Of a stretch of 64,000 nucleotides of DNA, positions 3,000-62,104 are shown one piece after another. The stretch comes from a virus (lineage: Duplodnaviria; Heunggongvirae; Uroviricota; Caudoviricetes): IMG/VR virus record IMGVR_UViG_2675903313_000009; one strand, written 5' to 3'. Numbering within the stretch: position 1 is the stretch's first letter; the number at the start of each line of letters is the position of its first letter. The translations under genes were made by a program, and so were the position numbers. A model generated the notes under the pieces. That model worked only from the letters and a program-made list of their open reading frames with translations, was not told the DNA's origin and did no database searches.

Positions 3000-3780
3000 C
3001 ACATCCTTAAATATCAATAAGTTATAGTTGTTTATACAATCAAGAAAACAACTGAATAACAGATCAACGAAACATCAACGCTTTCACCCGATTTGGTCTA
3101 AAAAATTGACGTTTTCACACATCACTTCTTATACCCGTAACTCTACGCAGCAGACAGCGCCACAGCGTCCAATTTTCACCACAGACGACCCAACACACTA
3201 CCAATAAAAACACACGCTCAAAATCGCTCCCGTTGCGTTACACAACCATATAAACAACTTATTTTCAGGCATAACAAAACAACTAAATAACACAAATGCC
3301 ATTCCCAAAAACAACCAACCTCTTTATGGCAGGCTACCGAAAAGACCCACCTCTTCTCCCCAGGCTACCGGACAACCAACCTAACTTTCACAGGCAATCC
3401 GAAAACATTCATACGCGCGATACCCACGACACGCCATTACCCAAACAGCGAAGAAACACCAGAATCACTGAAACCCCAACGAAGCCTGTAACCGCAAGGT
3501 TTCTCTCAATCCCAAAAGACACGAAACATAACAATCACGGGAAACGCCATTACCCAATACACGAATAACTACAAAAGCCTTTCACACACTCCAGACAAAC
3601 AACTCAAACACAATAACGAAAGGAATCGCCCACCTGCCATTACTCCATACACGGAGAAGAACAATCACCAAAACGACGAGAACACCCCATAGAAGAACCA
3701 CCGCAAAACGAACGAAACCACAGACACCGACAGAGAAAACAACACACCCAATTCACCAACAGAAATAGTCGCCGTATAGA
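3000..3780 (+). other. CA-rich, G- and T-poor non-coding tract (candidate long non-coding transcript)
   Basis: About 780 bp with strong A+C excess on + strand; only a low-complexity ORF without RBS; internal degenerate repeats (caaccaacct..ggctaccg). Confidence 0.4.
3106..3134 (+). promoter_or_regulatory. Candidate sigma70-type promoter reading into the CA-rich tract
   Basis: TTGACG, 17-nt spacer, TTATAC. Confidence 0.35.
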
Positions 3781-3892
3781 ACGTTCTGGAAGGAGTGAGC
3801 ATTAACGCCTATAGAGAGGTTGAGACAGATAAAACACGAAGAAAACACAACATGTATAGCGAACAAGACAGGTATGTATAAGTGGGGAGGGA

Positions 3893-3916
3893 AGGAGGGG
3901 TGTCGCCTCCTTTTTC
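3893..3916 (+). terminator. Rho-independent terminator at end of CA-rich tract
   Basis: Stem aggagg/cctcct with 7-nt loop then TTTTT. Confidence 0.7.
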
Positions 3917-3980
3917 GTATTTATTCAACTCCTGATTTTCATCCCCCGTAACACCCCTACGGTCAGCCTTCGGTCCATAC

Positions 3981-4120
3981 AGGGAAAAGGCTGCATCCCG
4001 CTACAGAAACGGCTGGGTTGCCTTCGGGGAACGGCTGGAGGTTTTCAGGGAAACGGTCGAGTTGCCTATGTGGATTTCGGGAAAAGGCTCGATGCCGGTT
4101 CAGGAACGGTGGCGTACCGG
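3981..4120. repeat. Direct-repeat array A: about 6 units of ~21 bp with core GGGAAACGGC
   Basis: Units agggaaaaggctg / agaaacggctgg / ggggaacggctgg / agggaaacggtcg / gggaaaaggctcg / aggaacggtgg at about two helical-turn spacing. Confidence 0.6.
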
Positions 4121-8235: not shown

Positions 8236-8895
8236 TTACGCTTTGAAAGCATCAGCTAAATAATTGTAGAAATCATTTTTAATGAAGCGATATTGCTGAG
8301 TACCAGCTTTCGCGCTCCCAGCTCCTTTGACTTTTTCAACAAGTCCAAGACGTTCGCAAAGATTGATCAACTGGTTGGCTTGAGTATAGCCAGCGTCCAA
8401 TTTAATTTCACACGCTTTTTTAGCTTCATTCATTAAATCGAAAACAGCGCCATTGGTGAACGTGTCGATCTCGTCGTTAATCATATCGATTAAAGCGAAT
8501 ACACGAGATCCTGACATATCAGCGATGGAATAAACGCATTTACCAGATTTAATTGATTTAACCAGATAAACCAGTTTTTCCAGAGAATAACTATTAGTCA
8601 TTGCATCACGGAAAAATACTTCTGGCGCTTGTTTGCTTGCTTTAATCGCATAGTAGAAAACAGAGCATAATTTTTCGTCTTCTACAGCGTTTACAACGTT
8701 GTTGATGAAGTAAGCAAGTTTCGTGGTCGCAGCTTGCATATTTGCTTTGTCTGTTTTAGTGTGCGTACCATTTTTATAATGTTCGTTATATGTTTGAGTC
8801 GCCAGATCTGCTTTTTCGCGCAGCTCGTCGGATACAATAGATGCAGCTTCAATGATGGACTTTTTAGAAATGATAACGTTAGCCATGATGGACAT
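8236..8895 (-). CDS. Hypothetical protein
   Basis: 219-aa ORF, AT-rich. Confidence 0.55.
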   Translation of the reverse strand: MSIMANVIISKKSIIEAASIVSDELREKADLATQTYNEHYKNGTHTKTDKANMQAATTKLAYFINNVVNAVEDEKLCSVFYYAIKASKQAPEVFFRDAMTNSYSLEKLVYLVKSIKSGKCVYSIADMSGSRVFALIDMINDEIDTFTNGAVFDLMNEAKKACEIKLDAGYTQANQLINLCERLGLVEKVKGAGSAKAGTQQYRFIKNDFYNYLADAFKA

Positions 8896-9140
8896 CCTTA
8901 CGAAAAATTAAAATGAATTTATTTTTTACTGTCGTTAGCTAGCTCGCTTTCGACGAGTTCAATTATCGATACGTGAAAAAAGATTGCAAGTATTTTTTTT
9001 AAATTTTTTGCAGGGATGAAAGCCCTAGAAATAAAAGCGAGATCGTCGAAGGTGTTCCCTAAATAAATAATCAATTCGGGCCTTTAACCTTATATATTTA
9101 TACAGAGTGGCATTGAAAGAGTTTTAAATGAATGGCATGT

Positions 9141-9168
9141 AAAATAATAACCGGGCTTAGCCGGTTAT
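9141..9168 (-). terminator. Rho-independent terminator (minus strand) after 9182..9706
   Basis: Stem aaccgg/ccggtt followed by T-run on minus strand. Confidence 0.65.
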
Positions 9169-9181
9169 TACCCTTATAGAT

Positions 9182-9706
9182 TTAAAATGGAAGGATTCGT
9201 TCAACCCAATCGAAGAAAACAAGTATTTTTCTGCCGTCTTCTAACTTAAGAGTGACCTGGCAAGCATCAACGCCTCTTGACACCCCTTCAATTTCACGAC
9301 CGTCTGCCATGTAGACCCTTATAGATTGGTCGTTTTGATAAGCCTTGCGACATATCGCAAAAAAGTCACGGCGTGATGGCTGATTGTCAACATAGTCTGG
9401 ATGTATTGTTAGCCTACCTTTGAACTCGCGAGCAATGCCATCGATTACACCTGATTCAATTGTGCTAATGCGCTCAAGTGGGAGTCTTATACGATTTTCT
9501 TTATCATATGGAAGCGGGCATAAATCTAGCTTATTGCGGGAAGGCATTGTCCCCTGAACGTACATGCAAAACACCTGACCGTCTTCAAGCGTGACTCTTA
9601 CAGGAATGTTGTTCTTCCGCCAGAACATAAGTATGTTTTCAGCATGTTCGTAGTCTCGCGGCCAGACTTCAGCCGGTATGCCGTAGGTGATGTCCAATGT
9701 TCTCAT
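9182..9706 (-). CDS. Hypothetical protein
   Basis: 174-aa ORF; overlaps upstream gene by 4 nt. Confidence 0.5.
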   Translation of the reverse strand: MRTLDITYGIPAEVWPRDYEHAENILMFWRKNNIPVRVTLEDGQVFCMYVQGTMPSRNKLDLCPLPYDKENRIRLPLERISTIESGVIDGIAREFKGRLTIHPDYVDNQPSRRDFFAICRKAYQNDQSIRVYMADGREIEGVSRGVDACQVTLKLEDGRKILVFFDWVERILPF

Positions 9707-10317
9707 TCTGATACTCTTAGAGGTGTTTTCAGCAACCCAAATTTAAATTCTTTGTTACCAACGACAAAGAAGGGAACCTCAACATAGATTTTTTTATCGA
9801 CGGATTTAGAGTTAGCTGTTTTCTGTATGTCACGAACGATACGTTTTGAGATATTTTCATCGATAAACAATACCTTTCCACTTGTATTCCCTTCAGCCTT
9901 GGCGTAAGTAACGATAGGCTCTTCATTGCCAACCCTAATGTTTACTTGGCAACCTGTTGTAGCCATTTCATCACAGTAAAGTGTGCCGTCTTGAACTTCT
10001 AAAACAATTCCAGATGGCTTCATGGCTTCGTCAGAGTTTACATTAACGTTTTCTGGTACAGCGGTCCCGTTAATTTGCAACCGTAATCTTTCTTTTCCTC
10101 CATTAAGTATTGTTTCTTCTGCGTTGTCTGAGAATCTGAACCAAACTGGCTGATTCAGACCTCGTGATTTGTATTCTACTACGTCTTCGGAGGTAAACAT
10201 GCTGTACGTTTTTTGCATGTCAGAGACGAAATCTGATAATGCGTTGGCGGAAAACGCCGGGAGGCATATACAAGCAAGGAGTAACGAAATTTTCATTTTC
10301 ATATCATGATAATCCAA
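9703..10317 (-). CDS. Predicted secreted protein (N-terminal signal peptide)
   Basis: N-terminus MKMKISLLLACICLPAFSANA; true start probably a few codons inside the ORF. Confidence 0.55.
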   Translation of the reverse strand: MDYHDMKMKISLLLACICLPAFSANALSDFVSDMQKTYSMFTSEDVVEYKSRGLNQPVWFRFSDNAEETILNGGKERLRLQINGTAVPENVNVNSDEAMKPSGIVLEVQDGTLYCDEMATTGCQVNIRVGNEEPIVTYAKAEGNTSGKVLFIDENISKRIVRDIQKTANSKSVDKKIYVEVPFFVVGNKEFKFGLLKTPLRVSE

Positions 10318-10806
10318 TTATTTAACATCACACTTTCTAAGTTTTTCTATTTGTTCTAATTTTTCATGATCATCATTTAGATTTCCTTCGACTATCTCCG
10401 TTTCAAGTTTGCTGATTAGCATGTTAAGTGCGTTGTAGTTATTGCATTTTACTTTGTAGGCGTAGTATGACCTTGTCCCTGGTTTTTGTACACCCATATC
10501 ATTAAAGTTAGAGCTTAAAGTATAACCTTCAAGTTCAACCCCTTTTATTGTTGGAAGAATTATATTTAATGGTTCTAATTTAAATGGGTAGATATAAATA
10601 TGTGATATGAAGTACTCTTCTGAAGAGATTTTCTTCATGTCTTTTGTGATTGAAGCTGAATATTTACGGTTCCGAGTGATATAAAATTTTGTGCATTTGT
10701 ACAACTCTAGGTTGAATAGATAATATTTATCTTTAAAAAGAACATCTTTTCCATGTGATATTTTATGTCGTAAAGAGTTAATTATTTTGTTTATGGAAAT
10801 ACTCAT
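10318..10806 (-). CDS. Hypothetical protein, Lys-rich
   Basis: 162-aa ORF abutting downstream gene; low GC. Confidence 0.5.
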   Translation of the reverse strand: MSISINKIINSLRHKISHGKDVLFKDKYYLFNLELYKCTKFYITRNRKYSASITKDMKKISSEEYFISHIYIYPFKLEPLNIILPTIKGVELEGYTLSSNFNDMGVQKPGTRSYYAYKVKCNNYNALNMLISKLETEIVEGNLNDDHEKLEQIEKLRKCDVK

Positions 10807-10951
10807 CTACAGTATCCGACCTTAGTTATCAATTGAAAAGCCTACAAATATCGTTCTGCCAATCAAGAAATTTTTTCAGCCGGAGGTGTGTGCTTCAAAA
10901 AATGTGATGAATATCACATGCAGGTGCTCTCATACACCTGCATGTAGACTA

Positions 10952-11551
10952 TTAATCATTCAATAATCTATATTTTCTTTTGATTAAATCTTCACCTTTT
11001 TTGGTGAACACAAAACCAAATTGCGATTTTTTGTTCAGCCTAAGTACTCTGTTATCCAACGCATCGGTTGATGGAATCAATGTTTGATCATCTATCCAAT
11101 TAAGTAGCGTAAGAAAGTTCAGCAGCCTCAACGTTGTTGTGCGAAGCTCTTTCGATATATTTTCAATGCTGGCAATTCGTCTTTCTTTTTTCTCAGGTGG
11201 TACAGATAATTGTTCTTGAGGTTTCGTGGATAGATAATCAATTTCGTTTGCTGCATCGAATGATATGTGTGGCGTAATTTTGCTAAAAAAGCCTTTCGCT
11301 GACTCACTTGATAATAAACCAGACCTATTCATATCGTTTGTTATTCTGTACAGGAGTGGACTGTGTTTCATTTCAGGATAACGTTGATAAAAGTTAAGCA
11401 ATTCAAAAGCAGCATTAGCGCCAACAAGAAAATCAGAAGGATCGCTGACTTTCCAGAAAGAATGATTTTTCTTAGCGCCAGTGGTGTCAACAAATGATAA
11501 TTCTTTTAACCAACTCATGATGTGCTCCTTTCTAACAAGTGAGCACATCAT
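10952..11551 (-). CDS. Hypothetical protein
   Basis: 199-aa ORF, low GC. Confidence 0.5.
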   Translation of the reverse strand: MMCSLVRKEHIMSWLKELSFVDTTGAKKNHSFWKVSDPSDFLVGANAAFELLNFYQRYPEMKHSPLLYRITNDMNRSGLLSSESAKGFFSKITPHISFDAANEIDYLSTKPQEQLSVPPEKKERRIASIENISKELRTTTLRLLNFLTLLNWIDDQTLIPSTDALDNRVLRLNKKSQFGFVFTKKGEDLIKRKYRLLND

Positions 11552-11864: not shown

Positions 11865-13424
11865 CTAATCTCGTTTCAGAACTCCAAAATCGAATGTGCC
11901 ATCAATTGGCAATACACCTTCTGCAAAGCCAGGTGTGGTGTCGATGATGTGTTTTCGCTCATAAGAGTGAGACAACAGGTATTTGTTGCTAATGTCAATG
12001 AAATCAGTGATAAAACACACGTTTGCCTGATTTTTTTTTGCTCGTAAGCCACGACCGACACGCTGTCTCATTTCAACTTCTGCTTTCCCACCACCAGCAA
12101 GAATGACCGCGCCCACGCTTGGCACATCAACACCGACATCCAGAATAGTCGAGCCTATTAAAACATCTATTTCGCCAGACGCTAAACTGTTCAGCTTTGC
12201 TTGCCTTGTCGCCTGGTTCGATTCCCCATAAATGAAGTCAACTCTAAGGCCGGACTCCTTCATCATCTCCATCAGGATTTGCCCGTGGCGTTTAAGACGA
12301 ACCAGAGTCATACAATTGAGAGAATGTTGCTTATAGAGCAATGCTTCGCGCACAATGGCCTCGTTACGTCCCAAATTATACACGATCCCCAACTGATAAG
12401 CCTTTTGGTAGGCAGTGCTCATACCAACTCTAAAATTGAGGTGTTTGTTGGCAAGTTCGGCCTTGATTCTGGCCTCGTCTGGCTTGTAGGCAACTTTATG
12501 ATAAAGGAAGTACGGCTTTGCCAGAATGCCTCGATCAATCAGGTACTTTTCTGTGACTTTAATTTCAATTCGCCCGGCCACCGCCATCAGGCGCATGTTG
12601 GCTTCCGTCGAATCCTTCATGAACGGCGTGGCTGTAAGCGCCAGACGATAGTCTGCGTTCACACATAATCTGGCAATGTCATAGAAATTAGAGCCTGAAG
12701 ACTCATGCGCTTCTTCCAGAATAAGCAGAGACACACTTGAAAGGAAGCGTTTCACTAGCTCCCGACGTTTGAGGTGGTAGCTCTTTTTATCTGGTGTTGC
12801 ATCGCGTGGTGGTTCTTCAAGGAAACTTGCCAGAGTTTGAACTGTAGCGACGTTGATATGTCGTGATACCTGGAACTCACCCGAGCCAATGACTCCAACC
12901 TTTTGGCCCTTTAACCACGGTTCGCCATTTTCGGCGCGGTAGTCGATGGATCTCTGGAAGTTTTCGGCCATTTGAAACATCAGAACAGAGCGGGTTGTTA
13001 AAAATAATGTCATTCGACCGATACGTGCAGCTGCTTTGCAGGCAACATTAGATTTCCCGCCACCAGTAGCGATCTGCGCAATCATCATTCCCTCTCGAAC
13101 CAGTGTTTCCACAGTCTGATCCTGATACGCATAATCAGGATTGTATGGGAATGGGTTAACCGCTGGATTTGGTTTTCCAAGCGCCGGGGCTTTGTCTTTG
13201 CGGATATGAACACATTTGATGCCCGCCTTGTTCAAGTTCGCCGCTACAGGCTTGGCAAAGCCAGCAGGGAACGAGTTTTTACTCCAGTTGAACATTGTGC
13301 TTGTGCCCTTCCAGTCGCCAGTCTCGACTTCGTAGCTCAACATCTGTTGCACCATTTGCTTTACCTTGTCATCTGCGCCAGAAATAAGCGCATTAACTGC
13401 GTTAGATACAATCCGAACAGTCAT
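11865..13424 (-). CDS. Superfamily-2 (DEAD/DEAH-like) helicase
   Basis: Walker A ATGGGKS, DEAH-like LILEEAH, motif III LTATP. Confidence 0.8.
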   Translation of the reverse strand: MTVRIVSNAVNALISGADDKVKQMVQQMLSYEVETGDWKGTSTMFNWSKNSFPAGFAKPVAANLNKAGIKCVHIRKDKAPALGKPNPAVNPFPYNPDYAYQDQTVETLVREGMMIAQIATGGGKSNVACKAAARIGRMTLFLTTRSVLMFQMAENFQRSIDYRAENGEPWLKGQKVGVIGSGEFQVSRHINVATVQTLASFLEEPPRDATPDKKSYHLKRRELVKRFLSSVSLLILEEAHESSGSNFYDIARLCVNADYRLALTATPFMKDSTEANMRLMAVAGRIEIKVTEKYLIDRGILAKPYFLYHKVAYKPDEARIKAELANKHLNFRVGMSTAYQKAYQLGIVYNLGRNEAIVREALLYKQHSLNCMTLVRLKRHGQILMEMMKESGLRVDFIYGESNQATRQAKLNSLASGEIDVLIGSTILDVGVDVPSVGAVILAGGGKAEVEMRQRVGRGLRAKKNQANVCFITDFIDISNKYLLSHSYERKHIIDTTPGFAEGVLPIDGTFDFGVLKRD

Positions 13425-48405: not shown

Positions 48406-48412
48406 TTTTATT

Positions 48413-48437
48413 GAGGTGCTGCTTGGCACCTCTTTCT
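48413..48437 (+). terminator. Terminator after partition operon
   Basis: Stem gaggtgc/gcacctc then TTTCT. Confidence 0.65.
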
Positions 48438-48449
48438 ATAGGTTCCCTA

Positions 48450-49169
48450 ATGCTCTACAAATATATTGGAAGTGAAGATTCGCAAAAAGTGTTACGTAAC
48501 CTCAAACGGTTTGTAGAGGACGGCACTATCTCTGCTAGCGCACCTTCTTCATTCAACGACCCATCAGAGTTCAAAGTTTCGATAACGATGGGAGGTACAG
48601 AAGTGGAGCACCGGAAACACTTTGAAGACAATGGATGTAAGGATTTTTCCTTTGAAGACTGGGATGCTGTAGCTCCTGAAGCTGCAAAATCGTTGGCTGT
48701 GGATTTGCGGAAAGAATCATTAGGGGCTTTTGGTGTGGTGTGCTTGTCACCAAACGAAGATAACATCTTGATGTGGTCACATTACTCAGTGTCGCATAAA
48801 GGTTTCTGCATAGGCTTTGATGATGATTTTGTTACCTCTATTGAGGGGTATCACAGCTTTGATAATGTGAAATATATACCTTCTGTTCCCGTGTTCGATG
48901 AAGTTACAGATGAGTTTAAGGTACTTTTTGATAAGCTCTTTTTCTACAAGCACGAATGCTGGAAATATGAGGAAGAACAAAGGGTTATTACTAAAAAAAT
49001 AGGCGCTCAGGCATTTGATAAGAAATATATTAGAGAGATCATTCTTGGACATAACGTTTCTCCTGAAGTAGAAGAATATGCCCGGACACAGCTAGACACG
49101 AGCATCGAGGTTTACAAAATGAGTACACCTGATGATGGTTATCTTCTTGTCAAAGAAAAGCTGAAGTAG
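48450..49169 (+). CDS. DUF2971-like protein
   Basis: N-terminal LYKYIGSED and FNDPSEF, later MWSHY; recalled as DUF2971 hallmarks, not verified. Confidence 0.5.
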   Translation: MLYKYIGSEDSQKVLRNLKRFVEDGTISASAPSSFNDPSEFKVSITMGGTEVEHRKHFEDNGCKDFSFEDWDAVAPEAAKSLAVDLRKESLGAFGVVCLSPNEDNILMWSHYSVSHKGFCIGFDDDFVTSIEGYHSFDNVKYIPSVPVFDEVTDEFKVLFDKLFFYKHECWKYEEEQRVITKKIGAQAFDKKYIREIILGHNVSPEVEEYARTQLDTSIEVYKMSTPDDGYLLVKEKLK

Positions 49170-49235
49170 CTCCAGACTTTCCTCAAATGATTATGTTGGG
49201 CGCTTTTCTTATTGAACTGGTTAGTGAGGCTAATA

Positions 49236-50408
49236 ATGGATTTGTTCTCAACCAAAATAGCAAAAAACAAGCTGCACGAATCTTTTAAACAGATTTATCA
49301 AGATAATACATATGCTCCAGTAAGAGAAGTGATACAGTCGTGGGGGCGTGGGTTACTGGAGCGTAGCGGTGAGCAGACTAAATTCGTTAAAGAGTTTCAG
49401 ACAACCTTCAATTCCGCCTTATGGGAATTGTATCTGAACGAAATGTTTATTCGTCTCGATTATTCTGTCGACTACACAAAAGACAGTCCCGATTTCTGTG
49501 TTACTACACCGTCAGGCTACCAGTTTAACGTCGAAGCTGTGATATCAGATCGGCCACATAATCCACCTGCAGGTGTTCTTTTTAGCGAATCAAAATTCAA
49601 ACATCAATCAACGCTAAAATTAATCGGAAAAATCAAAGACAAACATGATCTTTTTACAGGAGTTAATGGCAAAAAATTCCCGTACTCTACGATGTCTCAT
49701 GTAGTTAATAAGCCGTTTGTTCTGGCGCTTGCACCCTTTGACTCCGATTTATCATTGTCTCAAAATAACACAATCATCAATCGAGTGTTGTTTGGCATTG
49801 AGGAACCTACCACCAGAAATTTGGTGACTGGCAGCCAAACTAAAGTTACCTCAATCAAAAAGAATGAAGACGTTGAAATTCCATTAGGTATATTTACTAA
49901 CGACTCATATAAAGAAATAAGTGCGGTTATTTTCTCCACCACCGGCACTTTTGGAAAAGCCGTGGTTCAAAGCGGTATCGGTAGATATGTAAGGTCAACA
50001 CGATATCGAGCCATTGATGTGAATGATTTCATCGCCAATGAAGGGATGAAAAACGAGGGAAAGCACACACAAAGGATAGGACCTGATCATTTCATCACTA
50101 CATATCGGCATTTTTTAAATAACGAAGTCACTGGTGCGGATATTGTAGTTTGTCATTCCACTGCTCATGAAGAGACGCACTTTGACGGCCTTCATATTTA
50201 CTACAATCCTTTTGCGACAGTGCCACTGGACAGAAATATTTTCTTCCCCCCAGAGATAACTCATAATTTTTACGATATGGAAAAAGAACAGTCTGTTCAG
50301 AATCATCCTGATGGAGCGCTGGTATCTAGACAGGTTTTTGAACCAACTAGAGCACATTTTAGGTATATCATGAAACATTGGTTTCCAGGCTTTCTAAAAG
50401 ATGTTTAA
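49236..50408 (+). CDS. Hypothetical 390-aa protein, partner of DUF2971-like gene
   Basis: GTGAGG RBS; no recognisable motifs; lower GC than neighbours. Confidence 0.55.
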   Translation: MDLFSTKIAKNKLHESFKQIYQDNTYAPVREVIQSWGRGLLERSGEQTKFVKEFQTTFNSALWELYLNEMFIRLDYSVDYTKDSPDFCVTTPSGYQFNVEAVISDRPHNPPAGVLFSESKFKHQSTLKLIGKIKDKHDLFTGVNGKKFPYSTMSHVVNKPFVLALAPFDSDLSLSQNNTIINRVLFGIEEPTTRNLVTGSQTKVTSIKKNEDVEIPLGIFTNDSYKEISAVIFSTTGTFGKAVVQSGIGRYVRSTRYRAIDVNDFIANEGMKNEGKHTQRIGPDHFITTYRHFLNNEVTGADIVVCHSTAHEETHFDGLHIYYNPFATVPLDRNIFFPPEITHNFYDMEKEQSVQNHPDGALVSRQVFEPTRAHFRYIMKHWFPGFLKDV

Positions 50409-52736: not shown

Positions 52737-52759
52737 AGCGTGGAGAACACCTCCACGCT
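52737..52759 (+). terminator. Hairpin after helicase gene
   Basis: Stem agcgtggag/ctccacgct. Confidence 0.45.
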
Positions 52760-52877
52760 TGATTCATTGGTGAAACAACTTTTCTTTTGCCAAACCACAA
52801 AAGAAAAACACATGAACCTTTATATTATATCAACATTTAGGTTGGTCACAATATTGCCTATTAAAAGTGGAATTATC

Positions 52878-53993
52878 GTGAGCGAGCTGAAAGAGCTAAT
52901 TACCGAATTAGATTTTGAACAATGGTTGGACACTGAAGGTATCGTTTATCGACGTGGAGGCGTGAGTGCTCGCGGTCGTGAAGTGAATATCAAGGAGTGT
53001 CCGGTATGTGGCAGCTCCAACTGGAAGGTATATTTCAATCTGACCAGTGGCGTCGGCAAATGCTTTGCTGGTGATCATCCCGAAGAGATTCAGTTCAATA
53101 AGCTGATCTTCCTCAAGCACTACAGCGGTAAATCACGACGACAGTTCGAGGAATATGTGCAGAACGCGCTGATCTCACAAGGATGGGCGCCGAAGAAGGA
53201 AGAGGTCGTGCTGGCCAGCAAGGTTGAACTCGAAGGGCCAGTAGCTCTCCCTCGACATTACGAACTCCCCATTGACGGTCGTCTTCCTGATTATCTGGTG
53301 GAGCGCCATATCTCCCCGGATCTGGCCAAATACTTTGATCTGCGTTACTGCGTCGAAGGCAAGCACGCATACGTCGATCCGTACACAGACCAGGTCAAAG
53401 GGCAGGTGTTTGATATGCGCATCCTGATACCGGTTTACGATCTGGATGGCGTGATGAAGACCTTCCAGGGGCGTGACATTACCGGTGCAGCAGAACGTCG
53501 CTACCTCTTTCCTATGCAGCTTCCAGCTTCAGGTAGGTTTCTCTACAACGGCCATAATGCAGTCGGCAAACAGACTGTAGTTGTCTGTGAGGGGGCGTTC
53601 GATGTTATGGGGGTCAAACGAGCTATTTTTGACGAAGAAACATTACGTGATTACGTGGAACCAATAGGAACGTTCGGGATGCATCTATCTGGTAACACCA
53701 CTCAGGATGCAGAAGATCAGCTGGGCGCGTTCCTGACGCTCAAGGCGCGTGGGCTACGTAATGTGATTATGATGTGGGATAGTGAAAAGCAGGCTATACG
53801 CAACACTATGGCCGCAGCCAGGCGACTGAGCAGTATTGGTCTTAATGTGAAAATTGCATGTTTGGGCGAGGAAGGACTCGACCCCGGCGATGCGACCCCG
53901 GGGCAGATTATCAAAGCCTACTATTGCGCAAAACCTTACTCACGACAGCTTGAACTTTTAAGCAAGGTAAAAGGCATAGCTGCATTAGTTTGA
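52878..53993 (+). CDS. DNA primase (zinc-finger plus TOPRIM)
   Basis: CPVCGSS..CFAGDH zinc-binding motif; TOPRIM-like VVVCEGAFDVMG; start codon uncertain. Confidence 0.75.
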   Translation: MSELKELITELDFEQWLDTEGIVYRRGGVSARGREVNIKECPVCGSSNWKVYFNLTSGVGKCFAGDHPEEIQFNKLIFLKHYSGKSRRQFEEYVQNALISQGWAPKKEEVVLASKVELEGPVALPRHYELPIDGRLPDYLVERHISPDLAKYFDLRYCVEGKHAYVDPYTDQVKGQVFDMRILIPVYDLDGVMKTFQGRDITGAAERRYLFPMQLPASGRFLYNGHNAVGKQTVVVCEGAFDVMGVKRAIFDEETLRDYVEPIGTFGMHLSGNTTQDAEDQLGAFLTLKARGLRNVIMMWDSEKQAIRNTMAAARRLSSIGLNVKIACLGEEGLDPGDATPGQIIKAYYCAKPYSRQLELLSKVKGIAALV

Positions 53994-55130
53994 ACCAGTA
54001 TTAGTCACATACACATTGACCGAAAATGATTTAACTTCAGTATTGAAGTTGTCAGTCATTACCGCGAGGTAGGCATTTTTGGTATCTCTGAATTGCTTCA
54101 GGATGATTTGAACGTTATCTGTGCAAACAAACGAGGTAGCCAGATTGCCTCCTTTCTCTGAAAAATCCTTCAGGAATGTGCAGTCAACTTTGCCATCATT
54201 AGCGGTGAAGGTAGCATCATCACCCTGCCAGGTAAATGTAGCGTTAACGCCCTTATCAATGGATTTAGCAATAAGTCGCTGGGTGGCGGATTTTGTTTTG
54301 GCTTTGGAAGCCGGCGCTCGATATTTGCCGCTTTCTTTCAGTTCTGCAATGTAATCGCAGCCTCTTTTTTCTCCTTTATCGCAAGCAGTCTGATAAAGGT
54401 CGGCTGCTTTTTTATAGTCCTTTTTTACACCTTCCCCATTCTCATACATAATGCCAAGATTGGTTATGGCGTCGGCGTTTCCAAGTTCCGCTGCCTTTTT
54501 ATACCACTTAACTGCTTCTGCATCATTGCGTTTAACGCCTAACCCATCATCGTATAGTATTCCTAATCCTATCATAGCTTCTGAACTGCCTTGGTCTGCC
54601 GCCTTTTTGTAATAAGTAAAAGCCTTTTTATAATTCTTTTTAACGCCTTTACCATATTGGTAATACGCCCCAAGAACTGAAGTTGCTTTAACATACCCGG
54701 CATCAGAGGCTAGTTTGAAGTATTTAATGGCGAGTGCATGATCTACTTTACCAAGCAACCCCTTTTGATAAATAGCACCAAGATTGTTGTAGGCTCTACC
54801 TTCACGAGCATCCCCCGCAAGTTTGTAGTACTCAACAGCTTTATTTAGGTCTTTATCTACACCCTCGCCAAATGTGTACATAACCCCAAGTGCATAATAT
54901 GCTACTTTGTCTCCCTTTTCTGCAGCGAGATCAATCCACTTCTTGGCCTCAACTACATCCTTATCAAAACCATTGATACCATCAAAATAATTTGTCCCTA
55001 ACTCACTTTGTGCTGCGGTATCCCCTGCGGTAGCGGCTTCTATCAGCGTTTGTTTATTGTCTGCGTTAACGAATCCAGAGCTAAAAAGCAAAGTTAATGC
55101 CAGCAACGATGAAGATTTTATGTATTTCAT
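53985..55130 (-). CDS. Secreted Sel1-like repeat protein
   Basis: Signal peptide MKYIKSSSLLALTLLFSSGFVNA; about 7 Sel1-type repeats; C-terminal ~120 aa unassigned. Confidence 0.8.
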   Translation of the reverse strand: MKYIKSSSLLALTLLFSSGFVNADNKQTLIEAATAGDTAAQSELGTNYFDGINGFDKDVVEAKKWIDLAAEKGDKVAYYALGVMYTFGEGVDKDLNKAVEYYKLAGDAREGRAYNNLGAIYQKGLLGKVDHALAIKYFKLASDAGYVKATSVLGAYYQYGKGVKKNYKKAFTYYKKAADQGSSEAMIGLGILYDDGLGVKRNDAEAVKWYKKAAELGNADAITNLGIMYENGEGVKKDYKKAADLYQTACDKGEKRGCDYIAELKESGKYRAPASKAKTKSATQRLIAKSIDKGVNATFTWQGDDATFTANDGKVDCTFLKDFSEKGGNLATSFVCTDNVQIILKQFRDTKNAYLAVMTDNFNTEVKSFSVNVYVTNTGSN

Positions 55131-55363
55131 ATTTTTTGTTCTGTTGATATAGGATGAACAGTTTAGACGCGGCAAGCGTCAAGTGTGCGAAAAAGGGTAC
55201 TTAAATTTAGTTAATATGTCAGCTTTGTTGATTTAGTTTATGGTCGGTAAAGTTACTAGGAAACTAATAACCATAAGAAATAGTACGCCATTTAATTATT
55301 GTGGCACTGCTCGTGTTTTGATTAACTAATACCTGCGATAAATATAAATAAAGGGAAGCCAAC

Positions 55364-55777
55364 ATGAGCAAAAATAAGCTGATTTTAACAGGAGCTTTAT
55401 TGTCTTTGTTTGCTTTAGTGGGGTGTAAGCCTACAGACGAGAAGGCTATTGCTCTGGGCCAACAAGCAATTGCGGATGATATGAAAGATCCCACGTCGGT
55501 GATGTTTAGGAAAGATAAGTTTGTCAGGACTGATCATGACGATGGGAGTGTGACAGGCTTTGTGTGCGGAGAATTGAACGCCAAAAATGGCTTTGGTGCA
55601 TACGTGGGCTATCACTCATATGTTGTTGAACTCGAAATGAAGCCAAAGGGCATGTTTTCGAAAGGGGTGGTATACAAAATCCTATCGAAGTCGTTGGCAC
55701 CTAATGATCCTCATGACTTACAGCGTTATAAGCAGGTCTACAGAAAGATGTGCAACAGTGAGGCTGTAGCTCATTAA
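55364..55777 (+). CDS. Lipoprotein
   Basis: Lipobox LVGC in N-terminal signal peptide. Confidence 0.65.
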   Translation: MSKNKLILTGALLSLFALVGCKPTDEKAIALGQQAIADDMKDPTSVMFRKDKFVRTDHDDGSVTGFVCGELNAKNGFGAYVGYHSYVVELEMKPKGMFSKGVVYKILSKSLAPNDPHDLQRYKQVYRKMCNSEAVAH

Positions 55778-55783
55778 TGGTGA

Positions 55784-55815
55784 ATGCCGGGCAGACTATA
55801 AGCCCGGCATCTTCG
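55784..55815 (+). terminator. Hairpin terminator after lipoprotein gene
   Basis: Stem atgccgggc/gcccggcat. Confidence 0.6.
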
Positions 55816-55840
55816 TATAGGGAACTATTGCGCCTAAAAT

Positions 55841-55861
55841 GATAAGTAGATACATACTTAG
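55841..55861. promoter_or_regulatory. Palindromic GATAAGTA..TACTTA motif copy
   Basis: gataagtagatacatacttag. Confidence 0.4.
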
Positions 55862-55902
55862 TTTTTTGTAAGAATACTTTCATCTGTTAGCTAGGAGTTG
55901 GT

Positions 55903-56679
55903 ATGAAAGACGAAATTCAGAAATTGGCCTGTGACATCATTGATAAAACAGGTTTAGAAATCAGCGAGGGCAGTCGACTAGACATCATTGGAAAGGCCGT
56001 CAATACAGCAATGAATCATATCGCTGCTCGTATGGACGAGATCCCGCTACCAGGGTTGCCTTATCTGAAAGTTGAGTTACACGTATGGGGCGAACCTTCT
56101 TGTGCACGGCGTTCTGCATTAGTTGTTTTTATTAGCAAAGAAAACCCGCTCAGTCTTAAAGTGCAGGTTGGAGCATGGCTTGATGGCAGAGTGATCTACA
56201 CAAATACCGTTTTTTGTCTTTCAAACGACGAAACTATTGAAGCGGCCATTCAAGAAGCAGTTCTAGCAATGCGCAGCAGCGGTTTGATGAAGAATAACTA
56301 CGAAGAGTACTTGCGTTCGATAAGTGGTGAAAAGACATTATCTCTGAAAGCAGATTTCGTTACCCCGAAAAATCTGTTGGAAGTTTTGATTAATAAAGGG
56401 GCTAATAGTGCCGTAAATGTAATCAGAGAGAGTGAATACGCGTCTCTTTGGGATATGTGCAAAAGCCAGTTGGATCTTGTGCATATCGTTGTAGATGCGG
56501 GGAAGGCTTGTGATGGCGTAATGGCGGAATTTACTGGGAAGATGGTCAGGATTGCTAACGAATTACCGATGATTAAACAAGAGGCTAAATCATACGCCAC
56601 CAATCATGTCACAGAGCTTCTTGCCCCTTATCGCTTAGAAAGCGATCAGCGCAAGATGATTAGCTGGGGAAGTTGGTAA
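55903..56679 (+). CDS. Hypothetical protein
   Basis: 258-aa ORF. Confidence 0.5.
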   Translation: MKDEIQKLACDIIDKTGLEISEGSRLDIIGKAVNTAMNHIAARMDEIPLPGLPYLKVELHVWGEPSCARRSALVVFISKENPLSLKVQVGAWLDGRVIYTNTVFCLSNDETIEAAIQEAVLAMRSSGLMKNNYEEYLRSISGEKTLSLKADFVTPKNLLEVLINKGANSAVNVIRESEYASLWDMCKSQLDLVHIVVDAGKACDGVMAEFTGKMVRIANELPMIKQEAKSYATNHVTELLAPYRLESDQRKMISWGSW

Positions 56680-56746: not shown

Positions 56747-57217
56747 GTGAAAGCTGATTTGTCAAAAATCCCTTCTATTTCAGGAAATAACGGTTATTCA
56801 CTTCGTTGTGAGGAAGTAAAGATAAACGGTGAGTCGGCATATTGCAGCTACTCCGTTTGCCAGCACACCATTCTTGCCTTCAAAGAAAACCGTCTTCCTC
56901 GAACTTCATTCCAGTCGTGCGCAACCGCTATCAAAGCAGGCAAATGCAAGGCGTTAAAAATGATGGTTGAAGAGATTCGTAAAGGAGAATCTCTGTATTT
57001 CGAAGATATGACCGCGCTCATTAAGGAGGTTGAAGAACGGAATAAACAAGCCAGAACTTTAAAACGAAAACGTGACAGTGTAACGATTAATAGCATGGTT
57101 AAGAAGAGCACCACATCACAAACAGCGATCACTGACGTGTATGCGGCGTTGCTTGAAGAAACAACAAAAGAAACACATGAGCAAATCGATCAACATATGG
57201 AGGTAAAACAACAATGA
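56747..57217 (+). CDS. Hypothetical protein
   Basis: 156-aa ORF (GTG start in track). Confidence 0.4.
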   Translation: MKADLSKIPSISGNNGYSLRCEEVKINGESAYCSYSVCQHTILAFKENRLPRTSFQSCATAIKAGKCKALKMMVEEIRKGESLYFEDMTALIKEVEERNKQARTLKRKRDSVTINSMVKKSTTSQTAITDVYAALLEETTKETHEQIDQHMEVKQQ

Positions 57218-60125: not shown

Positions 60126-60200
60126 GATGGTGTAGCTCAGCGGTAGAGCAGTTGGCTGTTAACCAACTGGTCGGTGGTTCGAATCCACCCACCATCGCCA
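60126..60200 (+). tRNA. tRNA-Asn (anticodon GUU)
   Basis: Cloverleaf folds by hand; anticodon loop CUGUUAA; CCA encoded; not the E. coli Asn tRNA sequence. Confidence 0.85.
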
Positions 60201-60205
60201 ATTTA

Positions 60206-60292
60206 GGGGAGTTAGTCCGTAGAGGTAGCGGTGTAGACTGTAAATCTACTGTCATGGCGACTCGGGTGGTTCGACTCCATCACTCCCCACCA
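60206..60292 (+). tRNA. tRNA-Tyr (anticodon GUA), long variable arm
   Basis: Anticodon arm gtaga-CUGUAAA-tctac; acceptor ggggagt/actcccc; CCA encoded. Confidence 0.75.
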
Positions 60293-60296
60293 AATT

Positions 60297-60372
60297 GCCG
60301 GTTTAGCTCAGTTGGTAGAGCAGTCGCTTTGTAAGCGAATGGCCAGCGGTTCAAGTCCGTTAACCGGCACCA
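60297..60372 (+). tRNA. tRNA-Thr (anticodon UGU; assignment tentative)
   Basis: Acceptor gccggtt/aaccggc; anticodon loop UUUGUAA with one mismatch in stem. Confidence 0.65.
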
Positions 60373-60462
60373 ACACAACAGGTAAGAGCATTGGGCGAAT
60401 CGGCGATACTGACCCACAAGGCCGTAAATCGATAGAGTCAGACCAGTGCTCTTACCGTTGTG
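60373..60462 (+). other. Long stem-loop H2 directly after tRNA-Thr
   Basis: acacaacaggtaagagcattgg pairs with ccagtgctcttaccgttgtg. Confidence 0.45.
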
Positions 60463-60562
60463 ATGAATGCACAGGCTGATGTGCCGCAACTACAGTAGTG
60501 CGCGCTTTGCGGGGCTTGCTACAACCCTGTGTCGGAGTTCAGTACCGACCATCACAATAGCT

Positions 60563-60649
60563 GGAGAGTAGGGAGCATGGTGCTCAAGCGGTCTTGAAAA
60601 CCGTTCCATTGTGCAAACGATGATGGTTCGATTCCATTACTCTCCGCCA
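60563..60649 (+). tRNA. tRNA-Ser (anticodon UGA), long variable arm
   Basis: Acceptor ggagagt/actctcc; anticodon loop CUUGAAA; CCA encoded. Confidence 0.8.
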
Positions 60650-60650
60650 G

Positions 60651-60729
60651 ACACAGCGTTGAGCGGTTTGGCCTTTTAATCAACTCGATTAAGACTCCGC
60701 TAACATAAACCAGACCGCTCAACGCTGTG
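60651..60729 (+). other. Long stem-loop H3 directly after tRNA-Ser
   Basis: acacagcgttgagcggtttgg pairs with ccagaccgctcaacgctgtg. Confidence 0.45.
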
Positions 60730-60803
60730 ATAGATAATTACGGCAGACGTTCTTAACCATAGCTTGCTAACATCTTAGCAACACTTTTTTCAGCGCAAAA
60801 TTC

Positions 60804-60826
60804 AAAGGGGCTTCGGCCCCTTTTTT
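60804..60826. terminator. Bidirectional rho-independent terminator
   Basis: aaaggggc ttcg gcccc tttttt, A/T runs on both sides. Confidence 0.9.
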
Positions 60827-60841
60827 GTTGAACAGTGCAAT

Positions 60842-62104
60842 TTACTTTACATAGTCGCCCAGTTTTAATATTTCGCGCTTATATTCTTTAACCATGCTAC
60901 TGGATTCAGTATAAATTCGATTTAAAAGATTATCGCTATCTTTATTCTCATTTATCTTAATGAGTGATAATTTAAATTCATAGTCATCAAATGCCACAAT
61001 CAAATGGTGGCCTGGGATTATATCTTCGTCACTCTTGAAGTATATATCTTCAAGTATGTAATCTAGTTGATTAGATTTTCTTTTCTCGATGTAATCTTCA
61101 GCCATAGCTATTACATCATTCCTGTCATTTAACCTGTTTTTTTCGGAAGGCACATCTTCGTAATGTTGCACGATTGAACAACCAATAAGGCGTGGGATGT
61201 AAACGTCAAAATGAGTAACTCTATCATTCGCGGTTTTAAGTTGTTCCTCAAAGTAGTTTCTTACATGTAAAGGCAACTTCTCAAAGTAATCATTAATTAT
61301 AGGAGAACAAGGAGTTTTATAATTCATAAGAACCGACGGTACGAGCTGTGGGCGTCGAAACATCCAGTCCCTTTTAACGTCCGATGGAACATAATAACTT
61401 TTAATGATATTATCAAAATAATTTATCATTCGAGATTTGAATATTTTATTGAATCTAAGGTTTATGAATGTATCCAGATAAGGCATATTTGAATAAGCAT
61501 CATCAAAAAATATTTCATCATTGAAAAAATCATATTTATTCAATAAACAACACAGTTTTTCCGAATTAATATGTTCACAATAATCGATTTTTAATCCAAA
61601 GATAGCAATGATCAACTTCATCTGAGGTGGGATTTTAAAAATTAATTGTGATACATACGCTCTTTTTTCCTTGAGACATTCCCCATCAATATAAAATGAA
61701 CTATCCACATACTCAAATATATTAATAATATGCTTCACATACTGTATTACCTCATGCTGTTTTACCAATGGGTAATAGAGTCTATGTAACTCATCGCTGT
61801 TTAAATTAATTTTGTGTTTATCGATAATTTGTTTTGCAAGAAGACATAACGCATCATGTTGATTTAATAAGGAATCAAACCATTGTTTAAATGCACTCTT
61901 TCGCATTTCGAACAATGATTCAGTTGTTAATTGAAGGGCTGAAAAAGCTGCTTTTGCACTTTTTCTCGCTTCGTAGGCATTCCATGCTGTTGCTATAAAA
62001 GCAAATGCTGTAGCCAATGTTCCAACAGTTTGACCATTTAAAACAACCCAATCCCAAAAAATAACGGTGAGCAGTAGTATAATAATGAAAATTAAAAAAG
62101 GCAT
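60842..62104 (-). CDS. AT-rich membrane-anchored protein of unknown function
   Basis: 420-aa minus-strand ORF; two N-terminal hydrophobic helices; GC far below neighbours; own terminator. Confidence 0.6.
   Translation of the reverse strand: MPFLIFIIILLLTVIFWDWVVLNGQTVGTLATAFAFIATAWNAYEARKSAKAAFSALQLTTESLFEMRKSAFKQWFDSLLNQHDALCLLAKQIIDKHKINLNSDELHRLYYPLVKQHEVIQYVKHIINIFEYVDSSFYIDGECLKEKRAYVSQLIFKIPPQMKLIIAIFGLKIDYCEHINSEKLCCLLNKYDFFNDEIFFDDAYSNMPYLDTFINLRFNKIFKSRMINYFDNIIKSYYVPSDVKRDWMFRRPQLVPSVLMNYKTPCSPIINDYFEKLPLHVRNYFEEQLKTANDRVTHFDVYIPRLIGCSIVQHYEDVPSEKNRLNDRNDVIAMAEDYIEKRKSNQLDYILEDIYFKSDEDIIPGHHLIVAFDDYEFKLSLIKINENKDSDNLLNRIYTESSSMVKEYKREILKLGDYVK

Follow-up and report, generated by a model that had tools for sequence, protein, structure and literature searches.

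The window analyzed here, a 64,000-nucleotide stretch of viral DNA (IMG/VR record IMGVR_UViG_2675903313_000009), raises the question of why a phage replication module should carry, directly behind its DNA primase gene, one gene for a secreted Sel1-repeat protein and another for a small lipoprotein. An earlier reading of the sequence alone (here, the original prediction) placed both genes between the primase and the downstream replication genes and took them for lysogenic-conversion or exclusion cargo. Our comparison of this locus across related elements shows that the replication block, otherwise collinear and highly conserved, carries both genes as optional cargo, and that the two are independent of each other rather than a pair.

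A variable slot behind the primase gene

The window is an SSU5/pHCM2-like Escherichia coli phage-plasmid. The 2.7 kb around both cargo genes are 100% identical in ~110-kb non-mobilizable E. coli plasmids (NZ_OP242221.1, CP142588.1) and 96.9% identical in pECOH89. The flanks of the cargo genes have counterparts in the phages Cyrano, CMS-2020a, and PhiR41_1 (each ~108 kb), and the region is collinear with all three; the Cyrano-type phages and these plasmids form part of the SSU5/pHCM2 phage-plasmid group (PMC7969092). The local gene order runs from partition genes through helicase, primase, and ligase to a tRNA cluster, and the neighbors of the cargo genes encode a helicase, the primase, proteins of unknown function, and a ligase. 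In many existing records the Sel1 gene is annotated as “tetratricopeptide repeat” (TPR) or “sel1 repeat family” and the lipoprotein gene as a hypothetical protein, and we found no mention of either gene in the literature on SSU5 phage-plasmids.

The slot that holds the two genes measures about 1.87 kb, from the primase stop codon to a conserved element upstream of the next gene. The left border is the stop of the DNA primase (Toprim) gene (52740..53993, plus strand), which matches Pfam Toprim_2 and DNAG_N and is 89-94% identical in relatives. The right border is a conserved element of ~45 bp, ATAAGTAGATACATACTTAg-TTTTTGTAAGAATA (55840..55878, plus strand), found in all four slot states compared, which may be a promoter or operator of the next transcription unit. 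It lies upstream of the first gene past the slot (55903..56679, plus strand), whose 258-aa product of unknown function (phrog_4248) is 40-42% identical to the Enterobacter and Salmonella versions. When the window is aligned to Cyrano, similarity weakens from ~53968, in the last primase codons, ends at the primase stop at 53993, and resumes at ~55838; the two flanks that align make up only 31% of the query. In Cyrano itself, the primase and the next gene are joined with 75 bp between them, which bears out the predicted insertion between the primase and the downstream genes.

At least five states of the slot were seen. It is empty in Cyrano. In Salmonella-type and Cronobacter phage-plasmids, it holds the lipoprotein gene only, starting 32-44 bp after the primase gene and encoding a protein with 57-63% identity. 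Enterobacter hormaechei and Citrobacter freundii carry only the Sel1 gene, in a 417-aa form with one extra repeat, and both genes are present in the E. coli lineage of this window. Finally, pLR-46_1 and CP088502 have a remnant keeping only the 3' ends of both genes. Because other genera have either gene by itself in this slot, the Sel1 and lipoprotein genes are not a unit. The predicted cargo status is thus upheld for the genes singly, both being optional, furnished with export signals, and under purifying selection, with the lipoprotein drawn from a family that recurs in temperate phages, but not for the two as a joint system.

The region has matches in 348 plasmid records, of which 53 cover 80% or more and have both genes. 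Matches were found in 65 of 5,426 complete E. coli genomes, all of them on plasmids and none on a chromosome; 55 of these genomes hold at least 80% of the module, and the reading frames of the cargo genes are intact in these 55. The GC content is 0.41 in the cargo, compared to 0.47-0.51 upstream. Flanking repeats or insertion sequence (IS) ends that would point to an insertion mechanism were not found, the sole repeat being a 108-nt periodicity inside the Sel1 gene.

Between this window and Enterobacter or Salmonella-type elements, the helicase, primase, and ligase are 89-94% identical; the corresponding values are 54% for the Sel1 protein, 61% for the lipoprotein, and ~40% for the product of the next gene. 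The cargo has thus diverged far more than its flanks. Both cargo genes are under purifying selection. Omega, estimated by the Nei-Gojobori method, is 0.16-0.24 for Sel1 as a whole, 0.05-0.08 for its C-terminal domain, and 0.04-0.055 for the lipoprotein, next to 0.02-0.07 for the primase.

This arrangement is like that of phage morons (lambda bor and lom, and those of HK97 and HK022). The genes are optional, lie between conserved transcription units, and have a GC content below that of their flanks; one runs in the opposite direction, the other is followed by a hairpin, and their presence or absence varies among collinear relatives. The locus differs from these morons in that no independent promoters were found here, and in that the carrier is a phage-plasmid rather than an integrated prophage. 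The cargo belongs to a known general kind, and it is real, well delimited, and selected. What is unusual is the very rare C-terminal domain of the Sel1 protein, the cassette-like exchange of its repeats, and the size of the uncharacterized lipoprotein family.

The Sel1-repeat protein and the lipoprotein

The Sel1 gene (53985..55130, minus strand) encodes a putative secreted or periplasmic protein of 381 aa plus stop, as defined from the open reading frame (ORF) list, Pfam, PHROG, and the start annotated in relatives, and the gene overlaps that of the primase, which converges on it, by its last 9 nt. The longest reading frame at this position, 53985..55175 on the minus strand, would start at a TTG and give 396 aa. 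This start was rejected for the ATG at 55130 (MKYIKSS...) because the ATG is the start annotated for relatives in RefSeq and GenBank and the Sec signal peptide then falls at the N terminus. The Sel1 gene is the only non-nested minus-strand ORF between ~43.4 and 59.4 kb and hence, as originally predicted, the only minus-strand gene in the replication block.

A signal peptide, about seven repeats, and an unassigned C terminus had been read from the sequence, and all three were recovered. The Sec signal peptide spans aa 1-23 (MKYIKSSSLLALTLLFSSGFVNA; 55062..55130, minus strand) and has a basic n-region, MKYIK, a hydrophobic core, SSSLLALTLLFSSGF, and an AxA-type cleavage site, VNA, followed by DN. 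This assignment was made by direct reading; the feature is kept in an alignment of four Sel1 alleles, and residues 1-21 are modeled with a predicted local distance difference test score (pLDDT) below 50. Membership in the Sel1-repeat family is clear from Pfam PF08238 (E=1.3e-54, 6 stretches), and phrog_8741 matches the protein over its full length (3.1e-210). The AlphaFold2 model (mean pLDDT 84.6) has 14 helices forming 7 helix pairs over residues 23-266, in agreement with seven Sel1-like repeats at aa 24-266 (54333..55061, minus strand), the central part of which is the variable region. The repeats are followed by a poorly conserved linker modeled with low confidence, aa 267-283 (54282..54332, minus strand; pLDDT below 50 at residues 274-281, 24-65% identity between alleles), and by an orphan C-terminal domain, aa 284-381 (53988..54281, minus strand), predicted to be all-beta with eight strands over residues 284-377 at a pLDDT of ~80.

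The closest structures to the Sel1 protein are EsiB, HcpC, and LpnE. In NCBIfam it has only sub-threshold, generic Sel1 matches (MerG, MotX, AlgK, ExoR), and the PADLOC-DB 2.0 defense models were negative, with only a 22.6-bit TPR-type match to PtuA. Unlike the bacterial Sel1 proteins EsiB (c5321), HcpB/HcpC, LpnE, EnhC, ExoR, MotX, and AlgK, it possesses an extra, putatively disulfide-bonded all-beta C-terminal domain, is borne on a phage-plasmid, and has central repeats that are exchanged between alleles.

This exchange is evident when the E. coli allele of this window is compared with a second E. coli allele, the 417-aa form of NZ_CP031136. DNA identity is ~88% over the first 300 nt, drops to 48-73% from nt 300 to 960, where there is a one-repeat indel, and reaches 95-98% in the C-terminal domain. 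At the protein level, the repeats are 67% and the C-terminal domains 99% identical, and two stretches are nearly unchanged between the same two alleles, namely the lipoprotein gene and the 107 nt preceding the start of Sel1. The Sel1 protein therefore has two modules, a C-terminal one that stays constant and one of repeats that is exchangeable. The repeats keep a 108-nt periodicity at the DNA level, by which unequal exchange would be possible.

The entire tail following the repeats (residues 267-381, 115 aa) has no match in Pfam and no sequence match in the PDB. The homology search on the C-terminal domain that the original prediction had proposed yielded relatives but no assignment: a PDB profile search and Pfam scan returned noise only (KdtA at E 0.4, DUF3617 at E 0.16), while a word-indexed search found 4 close relatives, and an exhaustive phmmer search of 1.84e9 representatives found 8 matches at E<=1e-3, seven of them credible. 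The candidate P0013 was rejected as a spurious match to an immunoglobulin-like motif. In the credible relatives, the domain is C-terminal to Sel1 or TPR-like repeats or is encoded by a short ORF, with two invariant cysteines (C317 and C336) and an invariant motif, NVQxxLKxF..NxY. The ~7 protein clusters with this domain all come from Enterobacterales mobile elements or unplaced short contigs. It is held by 91 records, and in every record listed it lies beside or overlaps a primase gene or is found in the same slot. A truncated copy in Enterobacter kobei adjoins an IS and a HigBA pair near prophage tail-fiber genes, and a further copy outside phage-plasmids adjoins myovirus tail-fiber genes.

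The lipoprotein gene (55364..55777, plus strand) encodes 137 aa and has the lipobox claimed for it, LVGC at residues 18-21, with a Cys that is invariant in 52 homologues, as expected of a bacterial lipoprotein, and a Lys at position +2. Under the Lol rule of E. coli, lipoproteins with Lys rather than Asp at +2 are expected to go to the outer membrane, and sorting of this protein to the outer membrane is expected from its sequence. It matches phrog_2320 (unknown function) at 1.9e-39; neither the protein nor its 52 relatives match a Pfam family, and it has no match in PADLOC-DB 2.0. Profile searching places it in a family of at least 386 clusters, mostly from Enterobacterales, in which C21, P23, D42, P43, S45, V67, C68, G69, N72, K74, N75, Y80, and G82 are invariant and C130 nearly so. 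A beta-hairpin motif, VCGxxNxKNxxGxYxG, is invariant family-wide, and the protein likely contains one disulfide, C68-C130. The predicted fold is cystatin/NTF2-like, the group in which cystatins, latexin, and the periplasmic domains of VirB8, TraE, and DotI served as comparisons; a fold search of BFVD gave weak matches only (TM score 0.5 or lower).

The positions of its members support the view that genes of this lipoprotein family turn up repeatedly as accessory genes in temperate phages. In prophages of E. coli and Citrobacter they lie between the genes for the tail chaperones and that for the tape measure, in Fraca and Pseudomonas AUS531phi between tail genes K and I, and in P2-like phages and prophages also at the ogr/att end. 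Some members are fused to a SPOR domain (AUS531phi). Phage Fraca has a second, unrelated lipoprotein gene of 111 aa (3346-3681) right after the family member, both lying between tail genes K and I.

Possible functions at the envelope

The best overall explanation of these data, which we hold tentatively, is that the locus contains independent moron genes whose products would be exported and would protect the carrier cell at the envelope or exclude phages. The two accessory genes sit where two transcription units of the replication module meet, in a slot that tolerates recombination, and would be expressed in the plasmid state. The Sel1 protein would exit via Sec to the periplasm and the lipoprotein would be lipidated and anchored in the outer membrane, and the carrier cell would be protected at its envelope, with incoming phages excluded at or after adsorption. 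The lipoprotein, facing the periplasm, could then bind a conserved component that belongs to the envelope or serves entry; the hairpin invariant across the family and the fusions to SPOR point to a single conserved ligand in the periplasm and not to a specific receptor. The constant and variable parts of the Sel1 protein would fit a two-part adaptor, in which the disulfide-bonded beta domain docks on a conserved partner and the exchangeable superhelix recognizes variable ones.

Envelope-level exclusion or protection appears the likeliest function of both genes because both products carry export signals and both genes are optional, evolve under constraint, and are confined to temperate elements, and because the placement of the lipoprotein family in tail modules parallels that of proven phage-excluding lipoproteins (PMC11893012). 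Lipoproteins encoded inside structural gene clusters exclude phages, and many members of the present family lie inside tail gene clusters, as do the Lpp genes of mEpimmI (PMC11893012). Like T5 Llp, Cor of phi80, N15, and T1, and Lpp021 and Lpp010 of mEpimmI, this is a small phage lipoprotein with a predicted outer-membrane anchor facing the periplasm (PMC11893012; PMC9586334), and the block of FhuA by the periplasm-facing Llp illustrates how an outer-membrane-anchored lipoprotein can exclude (PMC9586334). The minus-strand orientation that separates the Sel1 gene from the replication operon also speaks for this explanation.

Several observations weigh against it. The Sel1 gene is carried by no isolated phage in a collection of 50,697 phage records. 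No sigma-70-like promoter was called in the intergenic region 55131-55363, in scans whose promoter and terminator counts were no different from those of shuffled sequence. In the lipoprotein-only relatives, a gene 32-44 bp past the primase may be expressed with the replication genes and not in lysogeny. A motif that is invariant throughout the family speaks against Cor/Llp-type blocking of a specific receptor, and the lipoprotein has neither sequence nor fold homology to Llp or Cor. More generally, neither protein has homology to any characterized exclusion protein or to any characterized function, and the role in lysogenic conversion or exclusion put forward in the original prediction stands as an analogy. 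A bolder version of the exclusion model seems rather unlikely to us: the Sel1 protein would be a modular periplasmic guard of a new kind, its orphan beta domain docking on a conserved envelope component and its cassette-exchanged superhelix capturing phage tail-tip or ejection proteins or injected toxins, and, as a separate matter, the lipoproteins of PHROG 2320 would form a large unrecognized class of exclusion proteins that block a conserved step of genome delivery in the periplasm instead of a specific receptor.

The alternative that survives best, though we consider it doubtful, is lysogenic conversion aimed at the animal host and not at phages. The Sel1 protein would be a host-interaction or colonization factor like EsiB, HcpC, or LpnE, binding host molecules such as secretory immunoglobulin A or modulating host cells, and the lipoprotein would resemble Bor or TraT as a factor of the surface or of serum resistance. 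The resemblance on the Sel1 side, however, reflects the repeat consensus and is a poor guide to the ligand; the C-terminal domain is missing from EsiB, HcpC, and LpnE, and there is no evident route for export to the surface. Carriers have also been obtained from soil, river water, and wastewater, and in many genera the lipoprotein family is associated with the tail modules of phages.

Somewhat less probable is that the two are orphan immunity proteins against toxins acting in the periplasm, such as lipase or amidase effectors of type VI secretion systems (T6SS), colicins, or lysozymes. The Sel1 protein would then correspond to PA5086-5088, which act against PldB/Tle5, and the lipoprotein would inhibit enzymes, for example papain-like NlpC/P60 peptidoglycan hydrolases. 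Unlike PA5086-PA5088 (Tli5b), which confer immunity to the T6SS phospholipase PldB, the Sel1 gene here has no adjacent Tle5/PldB effector gene. Similarity to PA5086-PA5088 is much weaker than to generic Sel1 proteins, with no specific similarity to these T6SS Tli5 proteins beyond the generic repeats, and they are without the C-terminal beta domain. The lipoprotein, for its part, does not combine a cystatin fold with the QxVxG hairpin motif of cystatin superfamily inhibitors.

We give little credence to a function in the lytic cycle, for example in lysis control, in cell-wall passage, or in regulation of the replication operon by convergent transcription of Sel1 into the primase gene. Such a function would be in keeping with the way the Sel1 gene converges on the primase gene, with a 9-nt overlap and no terminator in between, and with the same-strand position of the lipoprotein gene 32-44 bp past the primase in lipoprotein-only relatives, but the plaque-forming relatives Cyrano and PhiR41_1 and about three quarters of the related E. 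coli plasmid records are without both genes, and the strongly constrained protein sequences speak against a role exerted by RNA only. Least probable of all is that the genes are decaying hitch-hikers with no current function, as the deletion remnants, one IS1414 insertion, and the truncated copies in Enterobacter kobei prophage regions might suggest, against which stand the intact frames in 55 complete genomes, omega values of 0.04-0.24, and the conservation of the upstream regions and of the hairpin.

Enterobacteriaceae from clinics and livestock commonly harbor SSU5/pHCM2-like phage-plasmids, which move resistance and defense genes. One cargo slot of this type of element is now mapped precisely, and it repeatedly receives proteins with envelope-targeting signals. 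Two uncharacterized families are also brought to attention, namely widespread prophage lipoproteins outside Pfam and a rare beta domain attached to exchangeable Sel1 repeats. Should either protein block phage entry, this would constitute a new mechanism of exclusion at the envelope with a bearing on host range in phage therapy; should neither do so, the genes would be ordinary cargo.

Candidate control signals and other features of the window

The two cargo genes are transcribed divergently from a 233-bp intergenic region (55131..55363). When three E. coli alleles are aligned, this region is conserved over the 107 nt adjoining the start of Sel1 and over the 70 nt adjoining that of the lipoprotein gene, with a variable center. 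A perfect palindrome, GACGCggcaaGCGTC (55166-55180), lies upstream of the Sel1 start, is conserved in the three alleles, and overlaps a minus-strand TTGACG hexamer; it may be an operator. Two promoter candidates were rejected by hand, the TTGACG at 55182-55177 (minus strand) for want of a good -10 and a TTGATT-19-TATAAA upstream of the lipoprotein gene for its too long spacer and too short leader.

The lipoprotein gene had been credited with its own terminator. A stable GC-rich hairpin does follow its stop codon (55785..55809, plus strand; -21.1 kcal/mol, z=-4.07) and is also kept in the 61%-identical Salmonella-type version (L008), but it has no U-tract and the terminator scan makes no call there. 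It is possibly a terminator or an RNA stabilizer.

The first two genes past the slot, 55903-56679 (phrog_4248) and 56747-57217 (phrog_5055), both on the plus strand and of unknown function, show ~40% and ~70% identity, respectively, versus 89-94% for the replication enzymes. In pLR-46_1, the phrog_4248 gene is broken into two ORFs.

What looks like a second cargo hotspot separates the partition genes from the replication block, at 48411-50408 (plus strand). Two adjacent defense-type genes are found here, one encoding a 252-aa DUF2971 protein that matches the PADLOC candidate PDC-S31 (4e-38) and the other a 398-aa protein matching PD-T7-5 (2e-139). Relatives have DUF2971 alone at this position, or unrelated proteins of 324, 351, or 390 aa. 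A 519-aa DEAD/ResIII helicase encoded at 11865-13424 (minus strand) has a weak PbeA-like match in PADLOC (1.1e-22).

Within a minus-strand cluster of low GC content (0.34-0.41) at 8236-11551, the gene at 9182-9706 (minus strand) encodes a 174-aa protein matching Pfam Flag1_repress, an FljA-like repressor of phase-1 flagellin, at 5.4e-81. Judged by this match, the phage-plasmid may alter flagellin expression in its host. The region 60126-62104 holds four tRNA genes (Asn, Tyr, Thr, Ser), of which Cyrano has three, without Tyr, and after them a minus-strand ORF of 420 aa with a GC content of 0.32 and no match in Pfam or PADLOC, which is probably another cargo gene. Positions 3001-4000 have a strong base skew unlike the rest of the sequence (GC skew -0.315, AT skew +0.36).

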